A DNA stretch of 64,000 bases from Escherichia coli (GCF_030013205.1 NZ_CP122648.1); one strand, 5' to 3'. Shown: positions 13,673 to 20,065, counted from the stretch's first letter. The notes: generated by a model not told the origin, from the sequence alone. Numbers and translations are program-made.

Positions 13673-13920
13673 ATCGTATTCCCATTTGTAATAGACAAAA
13701 AAAAGAGAAAAGTAAGCCGCCCTTTCAGGTGGATTACTTTTCTCAGGTCTCTAGTAATTGCAATAAGAAATAACATGGAAAGTAGTGGTGTTGTGTGAGA
13801 GTAATCACGCTTCTGCTTTTTAAAATTATTTGACAATTCGAATATCACACTGTGATTACGATCACATTAGCGATTATGCCCTTATGATAAAAATTATCTC
13901 CAGTTACCAGAGATAATGAG

Positions 13921-13966
13921 AAAGGTAACTTCCCTCTCGCGGGGGAAGTTACCTTTCTTTTTTTTG
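13921..13966 (+). terminator. strong intrinsic terminator hairpin in the ygcW 5' leader
   Basis: perfect 14-bp stem aaaggtaacttccc / gggaagttaccttt with 8-nt loop, followed by cttttttttg; sits 24 nt upstream of the ygcW ATG. Confidence 0.6.
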
Positions 13967-13989
13967 CCTTACGGAAATTGGAGCTAACT

Positions 13990-14775
13990 ATGTCAATCGA
14001 ATCTCTCAATGCGTTCTCAATGGATTTTTTCTCCCTGAAAGGTAAAACCGCAATTGTTACCGGCGGGAATAGCGGTTTAGGCCAGGCATTTGCCATGGCG
14101 CTGGCCAAAGCAGGCGCAAATATCTTTATTCCAAGCTTCGTTAAAGATAACGGCGAAACAAAGGAAATGATTGAAAAACAGGGTGTTGAGGTGGACTTCA
14201 TGCAGGTGGATATCACCGCAGAAGGCGCGCCGCAGAAGATAATCGCCGCCTGTTGCGAACGTTTCGGTACCGTCGATATTCTGATTAACAATGCCGGTAT
14301 TTGTAAGCTGAATAAGGTGCTGGACTTCGGTCGTGCCGACTGGGACCCGATGATTGATGTGAACCTGACCGCCGCATTCGAGTTAAGCTATGAAGCTGCA
14401 AAAATTATGATCCCGCAGAAAAGCGGTAAAATCATTAATATCTGTTCATTATTCTCTTACTTAGGTGGACAATGGTCACCTGCATATTCTGCCACTAAAC
14501 ATGCTCTTGCCGGGTTCACCAAAGCTTATTGTGATGAACTAGGTCAATATAATATTCAGGTAAATGGTATTGCTCCGGGATATTACGCTACCGATATCAC
14601 TCTGGCGACCCGTAGTAATCCAGAAACTAACCAGCGCGTTCTTGATCATATTCCGGCAAACCGTTGGGGCGATACTCAGGATTTAATGGGCGCAGCCGTA
14701 TTCCTCGCAAGTCCGGCATCGAATTATGTCAACGGACATTTATTAGTGGTTGATGGCGGTTATTTAGTGCGCTAA
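13990..14775 (+). CDS. ygcW: short-chain dehydrogenase/reductase
   Basis: track ORF starts at a TTG at 13978; ATG at 13990 has RBS ggag 6 nt upstream; TGGNSGLG Rossmann motif and YxxxK catalytic pair. Confidence 0.8.
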   Translation: MSIESLNAFSMDFFSLKGKTAIVTGGNSGLGQAFAMALAKAGANIFIPSFVKDNGETKEMIEKQGVEVDFMQVDITAEGAPQKIIAACCERFGTVDILINNAGICKLNKVLDFGRADWDPMIDVNLTAAFELSYEAAKIMIPQKSGKIINICSLFSYLGGQWSPAYSATKHALAGFTKAYCDELGQYNIQVNGIAPGYYATDITLATRSNPETNQRVLDHIPANRWGDTQDLMGAAVFLASPASNYVNGHLLVVDGGYLVR

Positions 14776-14844
14776 TCCATAACGGTGGTTTCTGTTTTCT
14801 CTTATTAATGATTATTCCATTTTTATTATCAGGAAGGAATTACT

Positions 14845-16299
14845 ATGTCTTTATCTCGCGCAGCGATTGTCGACCAGCTAAAGGAAATTGTTGGTGCAGA
14901 TCGCGTAATTACCGATGAAACAGTATTAAAGAAGAACAGTATTGACCGTTTTCGCAAATTTCCGGATATTCATGGCATTTATACTTTGCCGATTCCGGCA
15001 GCGGTCGTAAAACTCGGTTCCACAGAACAAGTATCCCGTGTGCTGAATTTTATGAATGCGCACAAAATTAACGGTGTGCCTCGTACCGGTGCTTCCGCTA
15101 CCGAAGGTGGGCTGGAAACCGTTGTGGAAAACTCGGTGGTGCTCGACGGCTCTGCCATGAATCAAATCATTAATATTGATATTGAGAATATGCAGGCCAC
15201 GGCGCAATGCGGAGTTCCGCTGGAAGTGCTGGAAAACGCGTTGCGTGAAAAAGGTTACACCACGGGGCATTCTCCGCAGTCAAAGCCGCTGGCGCAGATG
15301 GGCGGCCTGGTAGCAACCCGCAGTATCGGGCAGTTCTCCACACTCTACGGCGCAATCGAAGATATGGTCGTTGGTCTGGAAGCAGTATTGGCTGATGGCA
15401 CCGTAACACGCATTAAAAACGTACCACGCCGCGCGGCAGGCCCGGACATTCGTCACATCATCATCGGCAACGAAGGTGCATTGTGCTATATCACTGAAGT
15501 AACAGTGAAAATCTTTAAGTTCACCCCGGAAAACAACCTCTTCTACGGCTATATCCTGGAAGACATGAAAACCGGCTTCAACATCCTGCGTGAAATCATG
15601 GTGGAAGGGTATCGTCCGTCGATCGCTCGTTTGTATGACGCTGAAGATGGCACCCAACACTTCACCCATTTTGCTGACGGAAAATGCGTGCTGATCTTTA
15701 TGGCTGAAGGTAACCCTCGCATTGCGAAGGCGACGGGCGAAGGGATTGCTGAAATCGTGGCACGTTACCCGCAATGCCAGCGAGTGGACAGCAAGCTGAT
15801 CGAAACCTGGTTTAACAACCTGAACTGGGGACCGGATAAAGTAGCTGCCGAACGTGTGCAGATCCTCAAAACCGGCAACATGGGCTTTACCACCGAAGTG
15901 TCCGGCTGCTGGAGCTGCATTCACGAAATCTACGAAAGCGTTATTAACCGTATTCGTACCGAGTTCCCGCACGCCGACGACATCACCATGCTGGGCGGTC
16001 ACTCCTCTCACAGCTACCAGAACGGCACCAACATGTACTTCGTTTACGACTACAACGTTGTTGACTGTAAGCCGGAAGAGGAAATCGACAAGTACCACAA
16101 TCCGCTCAACAAAATCATCTGCGAAGAAACCATTCGCCTCGGCGGTTCGATGGTGCACCACCACGGTATTGGTAAACATCGCGTTCACTGGAGCAAACTG
16201 GAACACGGCAGCGCGTGGACGTTGCTGGAAGGTCTGAAAAAACAGTTCGATCCTAACGGCATTATGAATACGGGTACTATCTATCCGATTGAAAAATAA
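14845..16299 (+). CDS. ygcU: FAD-linked oxidase
   Basis: 484-aa ORF with FAD-binding PCMH-type domain features. Confidence 0.8.
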   Translation: MSLSRAAIVDQLKEIVGADRVITDETVLKKNSIDRFRKFPDIHGIYTLPIPAAVVKLGSTEQVSRVLNFMNAHKINGVPRTGASATEGGLETVVENSVVLDGSAMNQIINIDIENMQATAQCGVPLEVLENALREKGYTTGHSPQSKPLAQMGGLVATRSIGQFSTLYGAIEDMVVGLEAVLADGTVTRIKNVPRRAAGPDIRHIIIGNEGALCYITEVTVKIFKFTPENNLFYGYILEDMKTGFNILREIMVEGYRPSIARLYDAEDGTQHFTHFADGKCVLIFMAEGNPRIAKATGEGIAEIVARYPQCQRVDSKLIETWFNNLNWGPDKVAAERVQILKTGNMGFTTEVSGCWSCIHEIYESVINRIRTEFPHADDITMLGGHSSHSYQNGTNMYFVYDYNVVDCKPEEEIDKYHNPLNKIICEETIRLGGSMVHHHGIGKHRVHWSKLEHGSAWTLLEGLKKQFDPNGIMNTGTIYPIEK

Positions 16300-16391
16300 T
16301 ATGTCAGGCAGCGTTCCGCTATGAGGGGCGTTGCCTTTTCGGCTTCTCAGGCGAGAAGCCGTTCTTATTACCGGACAATGAAGGGGTAAAG

Positions 16392-17729
16392 ATGAACACT
16401 TCACCGGTGCGAATGGATGATTTACCGCTTAACCGTTTTCACTGTCGAATTGCTGCGCTCACTTTCGGGGCGCACCTGACCGACGGTTATGTTCTCGGCG
16501 TCATTGGTTACGCCATTATTCAGCTTACACCCGCCATGCAACTGACGCCGTTTATGGCGGGAATGATTGGCGGCTCGGCGCTACTTGGCCTGTTTATCGG
16601 TAGCCTGGTTTTGGGGTGGATCTCCGACCATATTGGTCGGCAAAAAATCTTCACCTTCAGCTTTTTGCTGATTACGCTCGCTTCGTTCTTACAATTTTTT
16701 GCCACCACGCCAGAGCATCTTATTGGACTGCGCATTTTGATCGGCATTGGTCTGGGAGGCGATTACTCAGTAGGCCACACCTTGCTGGCTGAATTTTCTC
16801 CGCGCCGCCATCGCGGTATTTTGCTGGGCGCATTCAGCGTGGTGTGGACCGTAGGCTATGTGCTGGCAAGTATTGCCGGACATCACTTTATTAGCGAAAG
16901 CCCGGAGGCCTGGCGCTGGCTGCTGGCATCGGCAGCTCTGCCCGCATTGTTGATTACGTTATTACGCTGGGGAACGCCAGAATCGCCACGCTGGCTACTG
17001 CGCCAGGGGCGTTTTGCAGAAGCTCACGCTATCGTGCATCGCTATTTTGGTCCCCATGTTTTACTGGGCGATGAAGTGGCAACGGCGACCCATAAACACA
17101 TCAAAACCTTGTTCTCTTCGCGCTACTGGCGGCGCACGGCGTTTAACAGCGTCTTCTTTGTCTGCCTCGTAATCCCATGGTTTGTGATTTATACCTGGCT
17201 GCCAACTATCGCCCAGACTATTGGTCTGGAAGATGCGTTGACCGCTAGCCTGATGCTTAATGCGTTGTTAATTGTGGGTGCGCTGCTGGGATTAGTTCTG
17301 ACGCACCTGCTGGCACATCGCAAATTTTTGCTGGGAAGTTTTTTGCTGCTGGCGGCAACGCTGGTAGTGATGGCTTGTTTGCCTTCCGGCAGTTCATTAA
17401 CGCTGCTGCTTTTTGTTCTCTTCAGCACCACCATTTCGGCAGTCAGTAATCTGGTGGGCATTTTGCCTGCGGAAAGTTTTCCTACTGACATTCGCTCGCT
17501 GGGCGTCGGTTTTGCCACCGCCATGAGTCGGTTGGGCGCGGCAGTAAGTACTGGCCTGCTGCCGTGGGTGCTGGCGCAGTGGGGAATGCAAGTCACCTTA
17601 TTGCTCCTGGCGGCTGTGTTGTTGGTTGGTTTTGTCGTGACCTGGCTATGGGCACCAGAAACCAAAGCACTCCCGCTGGTGGCGGCGGGAAATGTTGGAG
17701 GTGCGAATGAACATTCTGTTAGCGTTTAA
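16392..17729 (+). CDS. ygcS: MFS transporter
   Basis: 445-aa hydrophobic ORF with sugar-porter-like motifs (GRQKIF). Confidence 0.75.
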   Translation: MNTSPVRMDDLPLNRFHCRIAALTFGAHLTDGYVLGVIGYAIIQLTPAMQLTPFMAGMIGGSALLGLFIGSLVLGWISDHIGRQKIFTFSFLLITLASFLQFFATTPEHLIGLRILIGIGLGGDYSVGHTLLAEFSPRRHRGILLGAFSVVWTVGYVLASIAGHHFISESPEAWRWLLASAALPALLITLLRWGTPESPRWLLRQGRFAEAHAIVHRYFGPHVLLGDEVATATHKHIKTLFSSRYWRRTAFNSVFFVCLVIPWFVIYTWLPTIAQTIGLEDALTASLMLNALLIVGALLGLVLTHLLAHRKFLLGSFLLLAATLVVMACLPSGSSLTLLLFVLFSTTISAVSNLVGILPAESFPTDIRSLGVGFATAMSRLGAAVSTGLLPWVLAQWGMQVTLLLLAAVLLVGFVVTWLWAPETKALPLVAAGNVGGANEHSVSV

Positions 17730-18486
17730 AGCCGAACCGGATGCCGGAATGCTGGCGGAAAAAGAGTGGCAGGCGGCGGCTCAGGGTAATAGCGGACCGG
17801 ATGTTTCGCTTCTGCGAAGTTTACTCGGTGCTGATGAACAGGCTGCCGCCGCGCTGCTGTTGACGCAGAGAAAAAACGGTACGTCGATGTCTTTAACCGC
17901 GTTGAGCATGGGGGATGAACGGGCGTTGCACTGGCTGCGCTATCTCATGGCTCATGGGTTTGAGGAAGCTGTATTGCTGGAGACGGCGGCAGATCTGCGC
18001 TTTGCGCCGGAATTTGTCGCTCGCCATATTGCCGAATGGCAGTACCAGAATCCGCTGGATCTGATAATTACCGGCTGCCAAAGCAGCGAAGGGCAGAATG
18101 GGCAAACGCCATTTTTGCTGGCGGAAATGCTGGGCTGGCCCTGCTTCACCCAGGTGGAGCGTTTTACTCTCGACGCGCCGTTTATCACCCTTGAACAGCG
18201 TACTGAAAACGGGCTGCGCTGTTGCCGGGTTCGCTTGCCTGCGGTGATTGCCGTGCGTCAGTGCGGTGAAGTGGCCTTGCCAGTACCGGGAATGCGTCAG
18301 CGAATGGCGGCGGGGAAAGCAGAAATTATCCGTAAAACTGTTGCTGCCGAATCGCCAGCGATGCAGTGTCGGCAACTGGCAAGAGCAGAGCAACAACGCG
18401 GAGCGACGCTGATTGATGGGCAAACGGTAGCAGAAAAAGCGCAAAAGCTATGGCAGGACTATTTACGCCAAAGGATGCAGCCATGA
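17707..18486 (+). CDS. ygcR: electron-transfer-flavoprotein beta-subunit-like protein
   Basis: internal ATG at 17707 gives 259 aa; ETF-beta/FixA-like sequence. Confidence 0.7.
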   Translation: MNILLAFKAEPDAGMLAEKEWQAAAQGNSGPDVSLLRSLLGADEQAAAALLLTQRKNGTSMSLTALSMGDERALHWLRYLMAHGFEEAVLLETAADLRFAPEFVARHIAEWQYQNPLDLIITGCQSSEGQNGQTPFLLAEMLGWPCFTQVERFTLDAPFITLEQRTENGLRCCRVRLPAVIAVRQCGEVALPVPGMRQRMAAGKAEIIRKTVAAESPAMQCRQLARAEQQRGATLIDGQTVAEKAQKLWQDYLRQRMQP

Positions 18487-19343
18487 ATCTCGCAATTGTG
18501 ACAATAAATCAGGAGAATGCCGCAATAGCGAGCTGGCTGGCAGAACAGGATTTCAGCGGTTGTACCCTGGCACACTGGCAGATTGAACCTCAGCCCGTAG
18601 TGGCGGAACAGGTGCTGGATGCGCTGGTGGAACAGTGGCAGCGAACGCCAGCGGACGTTGTTCTCTTTCCGCCGGGAACGTTTGGTGATGAACTGTCGAC
18701 CCGGCTGGCCTGGCGTTTACATGGTGCAAGCATCTGCCAGGTGACTTCGTTAGATATTTCAACCGTAAGCGTGCGCAAATCCCACTGGGGAAATGCGCTA
18801 ACGGCGACGCTGCAAACAGAAAAACGCCCGCTATGCCTTTCCCTGGCGCGTCAGGCGGGAGCAGCGAAAAACGCCACGTTGCCCTCTGGTATGCAGCAAC
18901 TGAAAATTGTCCCAGGTGCGCTTCCCGACTGGCTGGTTAGCATAGAGAATCTGAAAAATGTTAGCCGCGACCCATTAGCTGAAGCCAGACGGGTGCTGGT
19001 GGTGGGGCAGGGCGGAGAGGCAGATAACCAGGAAATCGCTATGCTGGCAGAAAAGCTGGGAGCCGAAGTGGGCTACAGTCGGGCACGAGTGATGAACGGT
19101 GGCGTTGATGCCGAAAAAGTGATTGGTATTTCCGGACATCTGCTGGCACCTGAGGTGTGTATTGTTGTTGGCGCTTCCGGCGCAGCAGCGTTAATGGCGG
19201 GCGTCCGCAATAGCAAGTTTGTGGTGGCGATTAATCATGACGCCAGCGCGGCGGTATTTTCACAGGCAGATGTTGGCGTGGTTGATGACTGGAAAGCGGT
19301 GCTGGAGGCACTGGTGACAAACATTCACGCAGATTGCCAATAA
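18483..19343 (+). CDS. ygcQ: electron-transfer-flavoprotein alpha-subunit-like protein
   Basis: internal ATG at 18483 gives 286 aa and overlaps the ygcR stop; ETF-alpha/FixB-like FAD-binding C-terminus. Confidence 0.7.
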   Translation: MNLAIVTINQENAAIASWLAEQDFSGCTLAHWQIEPQPVVAEQVLDALVEQWQRTPADVVLFPPGTFGDELSTRLAWRLHGASICQVTSLDISTVSVRKSHWGNALTATLQTEKRPLCLSLARQAGAAKNATLPSGMQQLKIVPGALPDWLVSIENLKNVSRDPLAEARRVLVVGQGGEADNQEIAMLAEKLGAEVGYSRARVMNGGVDAEKVIGISGHLLAPEVCIVVGASGAAALMAGVRNSKFVVAINHDASAAVFSQADVGVVDDWKAVLEALVTNIHADCQ

Positions 19344-19489: not shown

Positions 19490-20065
19490 TCAAAGCAATT
19501 TTTTCGCTAGCGTCCAGACCCCGGTATTCGTGGTGGAAAGCGCCACAACACCCGCGTTAATCGCATTACGCGCATCTTCTTCATCGCACACCAGCCCGCC
19601 GGCAATCAGCGGTTGGCGGATTTTCTCCGTCACCCAGCCCAGCACTTTGGGCATACAGCCTGGCAGGATCTCAATACAATCCGGATTCGATTGCGCAACT
19701 TGCTTATCAATGTTGTGAAACGAAATTGAATCAACAATAAACAGGCGATGAATACAGAAAAAACCTTCCGCTCTTGCCGCTTTCAACATTGAGGCTTTGG
19801 TACTGATAATGCCGTCCGCCTCAGTCACCAGTTTCAAAAACTGAATCACCACTTCTTTATTTGACGCGCCTTCCAGCAAATCAACATGAATAAAAGCATA
19901 TTTTCCGGCGTTCTTAATCTTTTTAACGATATTACTGATGGTGCAGATATTGCCGTACAACACGGAAATAAACTGGCATTCAGAGTCGATTGCCAGTTGC
20001 AGGCTGGCATTATCTTTAACGGCAGCAATCACCGGATTCTGGCGGAGCAGGTGTAAGAGGGGCAT
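19490..20065 (-). CDS. ygcP: GlpP-family glycerol-3-phosphate-responsive antiterminator-like protein
   Basis: 191-aa ORF with GlpP-like sequence. Confidence 0.7.
   Translation of the reverse strand: MPLLHLLRQNPVIAAVKDNASLQLAIDSECQFISVLYGNICTISNIVKKIKNAGKYAFIHVDLLEGASNKEVVIQFLKLVTEADGIISTKASMLKAARAEGFFCIHRLFIVDSISFHNIDKQVAQSNPDCIEILPGCMPKVLGWVTEKIRQPLIAGGLVCDEEDARNAINAGVVALSTTNTGVWTLAKKLL

Follow-up and report, generated by a model that had tools for sequence, protein, structure and literature searches.

A candidate GlpP-type antitermination switch with twin leaders in the divergent yqcE/ygcW region of Escherichia coli

Results

The ygc cluster and its divergent intergenic region

The stretch of Escherichia coli DNA analyzed here (GCF_030013205.1, NZ_CP122648.1; 64,000 nucleotides, hereafter the window) carries the ygc cluster, whose gene order in the K-12 RefSeq record is ygcE-yqcE on the minus strand, ygcW-ygcU-ygcS-ygcR-ygcQ on the plus strand, and ygcP-ygcO-ygcN again on the minus strand. 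We focused on the intergenic region between the divergent genes yqcE and ygcW, which contains two similar leaders, one for each direction. Each comprises an intrinsic terminator and a competing upstream helix, and both are candidate targets of YgcP, a protein of the GlpP antiterminator family. This intergenic region is present in 5066 of 5426 complete E. coli genomes, with 95-100% identity.

On the plus strand, the genes ygcW-ygcU-ygcS-ygcR-ygcQ (13990-19343, from open reading frames and the K-12 RefSeq record; ygcW 13990-14775, ygcU 14845-16299) are separated by short or overlapping gaps, which suggests a single operon. On the minus strand, yqcE (12395-13672), encoding a transporter of the major facilitator superfamily, and ygcE (10890-12368), encoding an FGGY kinase, make up the other operon that would be controlled (10890-13672). 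The gene of the proposed trans-acting antiterminator, ygcP (19490-20065, minus strand), is the last of ygcN-ygcO-ygcP and lies 5.5 kb away from both leaders in the same cluster. YgcP matches the Pfam family PF04309 (G3P_antiterm) over its full length (model positions 1-173 of 173, E = 1.6e-62), in agreement with a preliminary description of this DNA, which had assigned ygcP to the GlpP family. It also matches PDB entry 3kts (1.2e-27), and 1vkf is another PDB relative. The other proteins of the cluster are less easily named, as the NCBIfam equivalog cutoffs are reached by no ygc protein: YgcE scores 101.8 bits, below the GlpK cutoff of 590, the GlcD-like YgcU scores 144 bits against a cutoff of 568, and the KduD-like YgcW scores 350 bits against a cutoff of 369. 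Since, by these scores, the cargo is not that of a glycerol regulon, the ygc genes probably form a paralogous regulon, with an effector other than glycerol-3-phosphate.

For comparison across species, we used 80 loci around YgcP homologues, with one genome per species. Divergent yqcE(ygcE)/ygcW intergenic regions were found in 32 cases, in Enterobacterales (Escherichia, Citrobacter, Klebsiella, Raoultella, Enterobacter, Pluralibacter, Cedecea, Serratia, Rahnella, Limnobaculum, Budvicia, Pantoea, Erwinia, and Izhakiella) and in Vibrio and Photobacterium, and both leaders are present in all 32.

Both leaders end in an intrinsic terminator

The intrinsic terminator of the ygcW leader occupies positions 13918-13965 of the plus strand. 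It comprises a stem of 19 pairs (13918-13936/13941-13959), of which 17 are Watson-Crick and two are G-U pairs, a four-nucleotide UCGC loop, and a run of eight T residues (13958-13965) that ends 24 nt before the ygcW ATG at 13990. The hairpin, the T run, and the distance to the ATG are thus as previously described, but the stem is longer than the 14 bp reported. The fold of 13880-13995 has an energy of -45.4 kcal/mol (z = -6.4; 0 of 200 shuffles), and that of the 66-nt leader RNA (13900-13965) -31.0 kcal/mol (z = -6.1). On the minus strand, no T run follows the hairpin, so the terminator is unidirectional. The sole gene on its 5' side is yqcE (12395-13672), which is on the minus strand; no plus-strand gene lies upstream, as had been noted.

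The products of this terminator are on record. Romero et al. (2014, Table S5) listed ecr2774, a 73-nt RNA on the ygcW strand, as a "potential novel sRNA", and Adams et al. (2021) reported by Term-seq an "orphan" 3' end upstream of ygcW (K-12 2900311, minus strand), which is not Rho-dependent and has an intrinsic score of 15.8. The ygcW leader RNA (13900-13965, plus strand), whose predicted start is near 13899-13900 and whose end falls within the T run, corresponds to ecr2774. Because a mapped 3' end and a short RNA coincide with it, the hairpin stops transcripts in vivo, as the preliminary description had supposed, and its role as a functional leader terminator halting transcripts begun inside the divergent intergenic region is supported.

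The same design is found on the other strand. The yqcE leader RNA (13697-13761, minus strand) comprises an antiterminator, a terminator (13744-13705), and a T8 run (13704-13697), reading GAGAAAAGUAA...UUACUUUUCUC followed by U8, and its fold has an energy of -30.7 kcal/mol (z = -4.2). It corresponds to ecr2775 of Romero et al. (2014), a 63-nt RNA on the yqcE strand that was detected by northern blot, and ends near a Term-seq 3' end upstream of yqcE (K-12 2900556, plus strand; not Rho-dependent, intrinsic score 11.4; Adams et al. 2021). The sequence column of the Term-seq table spans -50 to +10 around each 3' end, as checked on the sokX row, which places the two ends at 13953 (plus strand) and 13708 (minus strand) of the window. 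These positions match the stated distances from the start codons (-38 and -36) and the mutual spacing of 245 nt.

The two leaders are related in sequence, with a local alignment score of 36 compared with 16.3 +/- 2.5 for shuffled sequences (0 of 500 shuffles). The pattern TGAGAAARGTAAY has just two occurrences in the 64 kb, one per leader. Likewise, a covariance model built from enterobacterial leaders found two copies only in the window, at 13888-13971 (ygcW side, 78.1 bits) and 13693-13773 (yqcE side, minus strand, 85.3 bits). A search for a similar motif upstream of ygcS or ygcN had been suggested; this model detected none there.

Two predicted back-to-back promoters with CRP-type sites

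Between the two leaders, two CRP-type sites are observed. Site 1 (TGTGATTACGATCACA, 13851-13866, centre 13858.5) is bound by CRP in vivo, according to chromatin immunoprecipitation sequencing (ChIP-seq) in enterotoxigenic E. coli (PMC4287617), and in vitro, with an estimated dissociation constant of 1.7 nM (PMC12871828). Site 2 (TGTGAGAGTAATCACG, 13794-13809, centre 13801.5) is a CRP-like site 57 bp from the published one, which is kept in 32/32 intergenic regions and has no entry in the ChIP-seq or footprint tables examined. From its sequence, CRP would act at this site as well, and yqcE-ygcE are among the Crp-activated genes (PMC8085971).

Consensus geometry points to an extended -10 element for each leader: TGaTAAAAA (13885-13893, plus strand) for ygcW and TGtTATTTC (13775-13767, minus strand) for yqcE. 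The TGnTA core of the ygcW-side element is retained in all Enterobacterales intergenic regions, and that of the yqcE-side element is conserved as well. At position 13887, the spacer base of TGn, this strain has an A, whereas K-12 and O157 have a C (TATGAT versus TATGCT). The A improves the match in a simple -10 scan, which picked the overlapping TATGAT, and leaves the TGnTA core unaltered.

With the hexamer placed at -12 to -7, the predicted starts are 13900 and 13760, and the centre of each CRP site lies exactly at -41.5 from the start of its leader. The predicted spacing between the starts, 140 nt, compares with 139 nt between the published 5' ends of ecr2774 and ecr2775, and the published lengths of these RNAs agree with molecules running from start to T run. 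In five Escherichia sequences, variation stops at positions 13898 and 13899, and none is seen from 13900 to 13956. The exact start sites given here are predictions from promoter geometry, and the supplements of the Cappable-seq and SMRT-Cappable-seq studies hold no entry for these genes or coordinates.

An antiterminator helix excludes each terminator

In the ygcW leader, a second helix begins two bases past the start. Its 5' strand, AGUUACC (13902-13908), pairs with GGUAACU (13924-13930), which corresponds to positions 7-13 of the terminator 5' arm. As 13924-13930 belongs to both helices, antiterminator and terminator are mutually exclusive, and 13902-13908/13924-13930 is the actual competitor of the terminator. 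In the yqcE leader, the equivalent helix is formed by AUUACU (13758-13753) and AGUAAU (13738-13733), around a loop at 13752-13739 of the minus strand. Mutually exclusive structures had been anticipated in the preliminary description, with a different partner: the palindrome TTATCTC (13894-13900)/GAGATAA (13910-13916). This palindrome is present in this strain, but it is not conserved even within Escherichia, the 5' arm being TTATTCC and TTATCCC in two other loci (L004 and L005), and this arm lies at or upstream of the start near 13899-13900. It was therefore rejected as an antiterminator.

The antiterminator helix has been maintained by compensatory changes. Among 50 distinct hairpins, 96% of the cells are paired and four of the seven pairs exhibit changes on both sides. 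Doubly changed cells number 22, compared with 3.5 +/- 1.6 in shuffles, none of 500 reaching the observed value, whereas helix registers slid from the observed one are only 4-57% paired. As MAFFT misaligned the helix in the 12 hairpins with longer loops, the alignment was redone with an artificial constant 5' anchor before pairs were counted. Complementarity is also kept in distant lineages, with helices such as GGUUGCU/AGCAACC, AAUUACU/AGUAAUU, and UGUUACU/AGUAACA. The ygcW and yqcE leaders of a single genome have different helices, both complementary, which indicates that base pairing is favoured over reading of those bases by a protein.

In contrast with the helix, it is the sequence of the loop that is conserved. 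The ygcW loop (AGAGAUAAUGAGAAA, 13909-13923) contains the purine motif (A)GAG(A)-N3-4-GAGAAA, which is kept in all 63 leader sequences as well as in the versions from Bacillaceae, Sporomusa, Listeria, and Spirochaetes, and is presumably contacted by the protein. In five Actinobacteria (L053, L055, L059, L064, and L066, at about 10630-11050), the loops do not have the first GAG, as in AAAACCUAGAGAAC. The actinobacterial helix is GGUUGCU/AGCRRCC, and the only universal features are thus the second GAG and the overlap of helix and terminator.

The antiterminator is weak. On its own, it has an energy of -6.7 kcal/mol (ygcW) or -1.4 kcal/mol (yqcE), compared with -31.0 and -20.7 kcal/mol for the respective terminators, and conformers forced into the antiterminator are 14-15 kcal/mol worse than the terminator folds. 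When the antiterminator is forced in the ygcW leader (-15.6 versus -31.0 kcal/mol), a 6-bp upper hairpin remains, more than 12 nt from the U tract. With such a weak hairpin and such a large penalty, the antiterminator would need a protein helper.

The ygcW leader also contains a 23-codon open reading frame, which starts at the ATG at 13916 (MRKVTSLSRGKLPFFFLPYGNWS, stop 13985-13987), runs across the terminator, and stops 2 nt short of the ygcW ATG, as might be expected for attenuation by a leader peptide. However, Pantoea, Erwinia, Izhakiella, Vibrio, and Photobacterium do not have this ATG but GAAGAG or CAGGAG, and every yqcE-side leader has CCUGAG instead. In addition, there is no convincing Shine-Dalgarno sequence, and the conserved features are RNA pairings. 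We consequently rejected the leader peptide, as this mechanism is hardly credible.

Conservation of the leaders across phyla

Upper terminator stems carry compensatory changes, whereas the lower stem, the loop, and the upstream heptamer are conserved. In 11 sequences from Escherichia, Citrobacter, Superficieibacter, and Raoultella, 10 of 67 columns are variable in the leader RNA and 82 of 138 in the promoter core, the leader being four times less variable. Beside ygcP homologues outside the enterobacteria, the covariance model matches Gracilibacillus, Halobacillus, Thalassobacillus, and Salibacterium (59-69 bits), Sporomusa (46 bits), and five Actinobacteria (33-40 bits); matches in Listeria and Spirochaetes are marginal. 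All these matches fall in leaders of ygcW or ygcU homologues, and the conserved module comprises ygcP, ygcW, ygcU, and ygcE. The element is not in Rfam 15: in the window from 13000 to 15000, no significant match was obtained at E <= 10 (best 25 bits versus gathering scores of 60-100), and seven motif-bearing loci gave zero gathering-level matches.

Hairpins of this kind could also be non-regulatory, either palindromes resembling repetitive extragenic palindromic (REP) elements or constitutive dampers. The distribution and conservation of the leaders make this highly improbable. There are two copies in 64 kb, both in leaders, with a median of one intergenic copy per E. coli genome, sequence and structure are kept from Proteobacteria to Actinobacteria, with covariation, and the leaders vary far less than the neighbouring promoter DNA.

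Several loci depart from the usual arrangement. In Citrobacter youngae (L009) and Klebsiella spallanzanii (L010), an insert of about 128 nt with an imperfect palindrome, which resembles an ERIC/IRU repeat (enterobacterial repetitive intergenic consensus/intergenic repeat unit), lies between the yqcE-leader terminator and the yqcE ATG, downstream of the attenuator, which is intact. In E. coli PK8277 (L003, 2286-3798), two IS1A copies replace the segment from the 5' end of yqcE through the 3' part of ygcP, and both leaders and the entire ygcW-ygcQ operon are lost. In three loci, the motif lies ahead of an operon containing the ygcP/glpP homologue itself: Budvicia aquatica (L037, 6914-6994), L063 (9871-9943), and L077 (299-377). 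This suggests autoregulation in these cases, unlike in E. coli, where ygcN-ygcO-ygcP has no motif.

Beyond ygcE, the window contains a CRISPR (clustered regularly interspaced short palindromic repeats) array at 9974-10252 and 10706-10845, with the repeat GTTCCCCGCGCCAGCGGGGATAAACCG, a spacing of 61 nt, and five regular copies. Degenerate repeat remnants lie nearer to ygcE, and the K-12 record annotates CRISPR at the same place. Term-seq 3' ends are found inside the K-12 CRISPR repeats (Adams et al. 2021).

A related element precedes glycerol genes in Clostridia

A similar element is found at clostridial glpP loci, where a helix of 5-9 bp, unrelated in sequence, encloses a loop of the form aGAGa-N3-4-GAG-N3-4 and runs into a terminator. 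It is located directly 5' of a genuine glpK in two loci (L073 and L082; TIGR01311 744 bits, cutoff 590) and directly 5' of genes resembling glycerol-3-phosphate (G3P) oxidase in four (L060, L061, L069, and L071). Shuffled controls gave 0 matches in the strict scan and three in the relaxed scan. As the same architecture precedes clostridial glpK and G3P-oxidase-like genes, the ygc leaders seem to represent one branch of an operator common to the GlpP family. In the reverse direction, we retrieved five metagenome contigs by the RNA motif alone; four of them are long enough to be evaluated, and each of these four carries a gene for a YgcP homologue. When metagenome contigs were scanned for an exact match to the primer-derived B. 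subtilis glpD leader sequence, none was obtained.

These results bear on the nature of the ligand sensor. The conservation of the loop sequence across phyla and its overlap with a terminator, as in transcriptional riboswitches, are what would be expected of a small riboswitch binding the inducing metabolite without any protein. Nevertheless, the element consists of just a 6-7 bp helix and a loop of 14-18 nt, is very weak, and shows no other conserved structure, and there is strict co-occurrence with a protein family that is needed for antitermination in B. subtilis. Furthermore, clusters that differ in substrate, glycerol-3-phosphate in one case and that of the ygc pathway in the other, share this loop motif, which is more easily reconciled with a protein adaptor than with a ligand pocket. 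A riboswitch is therefore very unlikely.

The same data are relevant to the status of ecr2774 and ecr2775, which might be stand-alone, CRP-induced small RNAs (sRNAs) acting in trans. The terminators would then be simply their ends, and ygcW and yqcE would be expressed from other starts or by incidental read-through. Hfq binds ARN-like A/G-rich stretches, and both RNAs exhibit such stretches and long U tails. Both were listed as potential novel sRNAs by Romero et al., and one was detected by northern blot. On the other hand, in at least four phyla the element is always directly 5', and in the same orientation, of ygcW, ygcU, ygcE, or glpK-type genes, the 24 nt before the ATG hold no conserved room for another promoter, and the conserved part is a helix overlapping the terminator arm rather than a single-stranded seed. 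We thus consider it improbable that the two RNAs are sRNAs only.

Discussion

The hairpin upstream of ygcW is a real stop signal, it has a twin upstream of yqcE, and it belongs to a conserved element found beside GlpP-type genes; for these reasons, it is very probably the on/off switch of this uncharacterized, sugar-like catabolic cluster. As a whole, we consider it likely that the feature is a GlpP-type antitermination system, twin and CRP-driven, which controls an orphan E. coli cluster. The core idea of the preliminary description, a switch in the style of GlpP and glpD, is supported by the covarying and mutually exclusive antiterminator, by the cross-phylum co-occurrence with GlpP genes, and by the similar leaders of glpK and G3P-oxidase-like genes. 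That description was right in its core, wrong in structural detail, and incomplete, as it missed the yqcE twin and the second CRP site. Its statement that no experimental description of the switch was known is partly wrong: we found no published link to YgcP, but earlier studies had already recorded both short RNAs, where they end, and the binding of CRP.

In the mechanism that we propose, CRP-cAMP (cyclic AMP) would fire two back-to-back CRP-dependent promoters in the yqcE/ygcW intergenic region, and each promoter would produce a leader of about 65 nt ending in a strong intrinsic terminator. Because both leaders end in strong terminators, the default output would be only the short RNAs ecr2774 and ecr2775. 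On the nascent RNA, the 5' hairpin would form first and then be displaced by the terminator, unless clamped by YgcP. When loaded with its metabolite, YgcP would bind and stabilize this 5'-terminal hairpin; by analogy with glycerol-3-phosphate and GlpK, the ligand may be the phosphorylated compound that the YgcE kinase produces. Clamping of the hairpin would keep the lower terminator stem from forming beside the U tract, and RNA polymerase would then read through into both operons, ygcW-ygcU-ygcS-ygcR-ygcQ in one direction and yqcE-ygcE in the opposite one. More speculatively, a protein bound at the extreme 5' end might also protect the mRNA, by analogy with GlpP, which is cited as protecting glpD mRNA (Glatz 1996, as cited).

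The dependence of the switch on YgcP is what we infer from gene content and family membership. The attenuator could be real and its antiterminator nevertheless be stabilized by another RNA-binding protein or a global factor, YgcP acting elsewhere in the pathway. GlpP-family proteins have a TIM-barrel-like fold. Such an enzyme-like fold, represented by the PDB relatives 3kts and 1vkf, would suit a role in the pathway, and the tie between YgcP and the RNA is one of co-occurrence. However, the GlpP homologue is the one gene that stays beside the motif when the cargo shifts from ygcW, ygcU, and ygcE to glpK and G3P oxidase, and GlpP of B. subtilis is presented in PMC10573289 and PMC9604022 as an established leader-RNA-dependent antiterminator. 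A factor other than YgcP is accordingly quite improbable.

Several points weigh against antitermination by YgcP as we propose it. The dominant Term-seq ends (13953 on the plus strand and 13708 on the minus strand) fall short of the T runs by a few bases, within the descending strand of the stems, and the start sites derive from one RNA-seq study and promoter geometry. Many clostridial glpP loci have no motif within 10 kb, and the Serratia microhaemolytica locus (L029, 17 kb) contains neither other ygc genes nor a leader motif near ygcP. The association between motif and YgcP is biased, since nearly all loci were fetched through YgcP, and the reverse test is limited to four evaluable contigs. 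The comparison covers leaders from enterobacteria to Clostridia, the sole experimentally proven GlpP targets being the leaders of B. subtilis glpD, glpFK, and glpTQ. Finally, our literature searches returned no paper or experiment connecting YgcP to the leaders, and those on ygcP, ygcU, and a comparative GlpP RNA motif found nothing relevant.

The YgcP homologue of the S. microhaemolytica locus (7431-7988) has 70% identity. With regard to the 3' ends inside the stems, they presumably reflect trimming after termination; they could result from trimming into the A/U-rich lower stem, or the lower stem could remain unformed in vivo. A further possibility is that the leaders have a dual function, being both YgcP-controlled attenuators and a source of stable CRP-induced sRNAs that act in trans, for example via Hfq. 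We regard this as unlikely; if true, the cluster would broadcast a "carbon-poor but inducer absent" signal to other genes, and the stem-internal 3' ends could be the processed, protein-bound form.

With GlpP-type antitermination as the preferred reading, the ten-gene cluster from ygcN to ygcE of E. coli K-12, which has no known substrate or regulation, gains a concrete candidate switch, with proposed RNA parts, start sites, and CRP input. For E. coli, this would be the first proposal of a GlpP-type antitermination system, and the two published "novel sRNAs" would be reinterpreted as attenuator products. The results also provide a consensus RNA operator for GlpP-type proteins, in which a GAG...GAG loop is enclosed by a short helix of variable sequence that is joined to a terminator. 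This consensus, which has no counterpart in Rfam, holds from Proteobacteria and Firmicutes to Actinobacteria and Spirochaetes. GlpP/YgcP regulons can be predicted with it, and the four-gene module ygcP-ygcW-ygcU-ygcE can guide the search for substrate and effector. In B. subtilis, pairs of GlpP and its leader have already been put to use as portable inducible switches (PMC9604022).

Comparison with known systems

Among the closest published objects are ecr2774 and ecr2775 (73 and 63 nt), which come from the strands and the intergenic region of the terminated leaders and are identical with them. In the original publication, they appear as independent stem-loop RNAs with a possible relation to REP elements, and no connection is drawn to attenuation, CRP geometry, YgcP, or conservation across species.

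In terms of RNA logic, the ygc leaders resemble the targets of BglG, SacY, and LicT (E. coli bgl, B. subtilis sac and lic), the ribonucleic antiterminator (RAT) sequences. In both cases, a weak 5' hairpin overlaps the 5' arm of a strong terminator; in the BglG-type systems, it is effective only when stabilized by a sugar-responsive protein, as would be the case here. The motif of the ygc leaders is unrelated to the RAT consensus. The proteins also differ, BglG, SacY, and LicT having CAT and PRD domains and YgcP having PF04309 only, and control occurs by phosphorylation via the phosphotransferase system in the former and probably by a small ligand in the latter.

A parallel can also be drawn with HutP and TRAP, multimeric proteins which recognize spaced NAG triplets in the leaders of their target RNAs, as the ygc loop contains two GAG triplets spaced, by eye, 3-6 nt apart. 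However, the protein folds are unrelated, and the ygc leaders have just two triplets, located in a hairpin loop. For HutP, the RNA sites are described as triplet repeats in PMC2425495.

GlpP of B. subtilis is another close point of comparison. According to PMC10573289 and PMC9604022, which cite Holmberg and Rutberg (1991/1992) and Glatz et al. (1996) as the original sources, it mediates glycerol-3-phosphate-dependent antitermination in the leaders of glpD, glpFK, and glpTQ. The cargo there is that of a glycerol regulon, unlike that of the ygc cluster, and the ygc system is distinguished by a Gram-negative host and by two targets arranged as a divergent mirror pair. In E. coli, the glycerol genes are instead under the control of the GlpR repressor. 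The likeness lies in architecture and gene content. Both systems have a GlpP-family protein in the cluster, an intrinsic terminator in the 5' leader just past the promoter, and similar leader inverted repeats at several operons of the regulon, with catabolite control on top, exerted by CRP in ygc and by CcpA in B. subtilis glp. Moreover, the kinase and the flavin adenine dinucleotide (FAD) oxidase of the ygc regulon parallel GlpK and GlpD.

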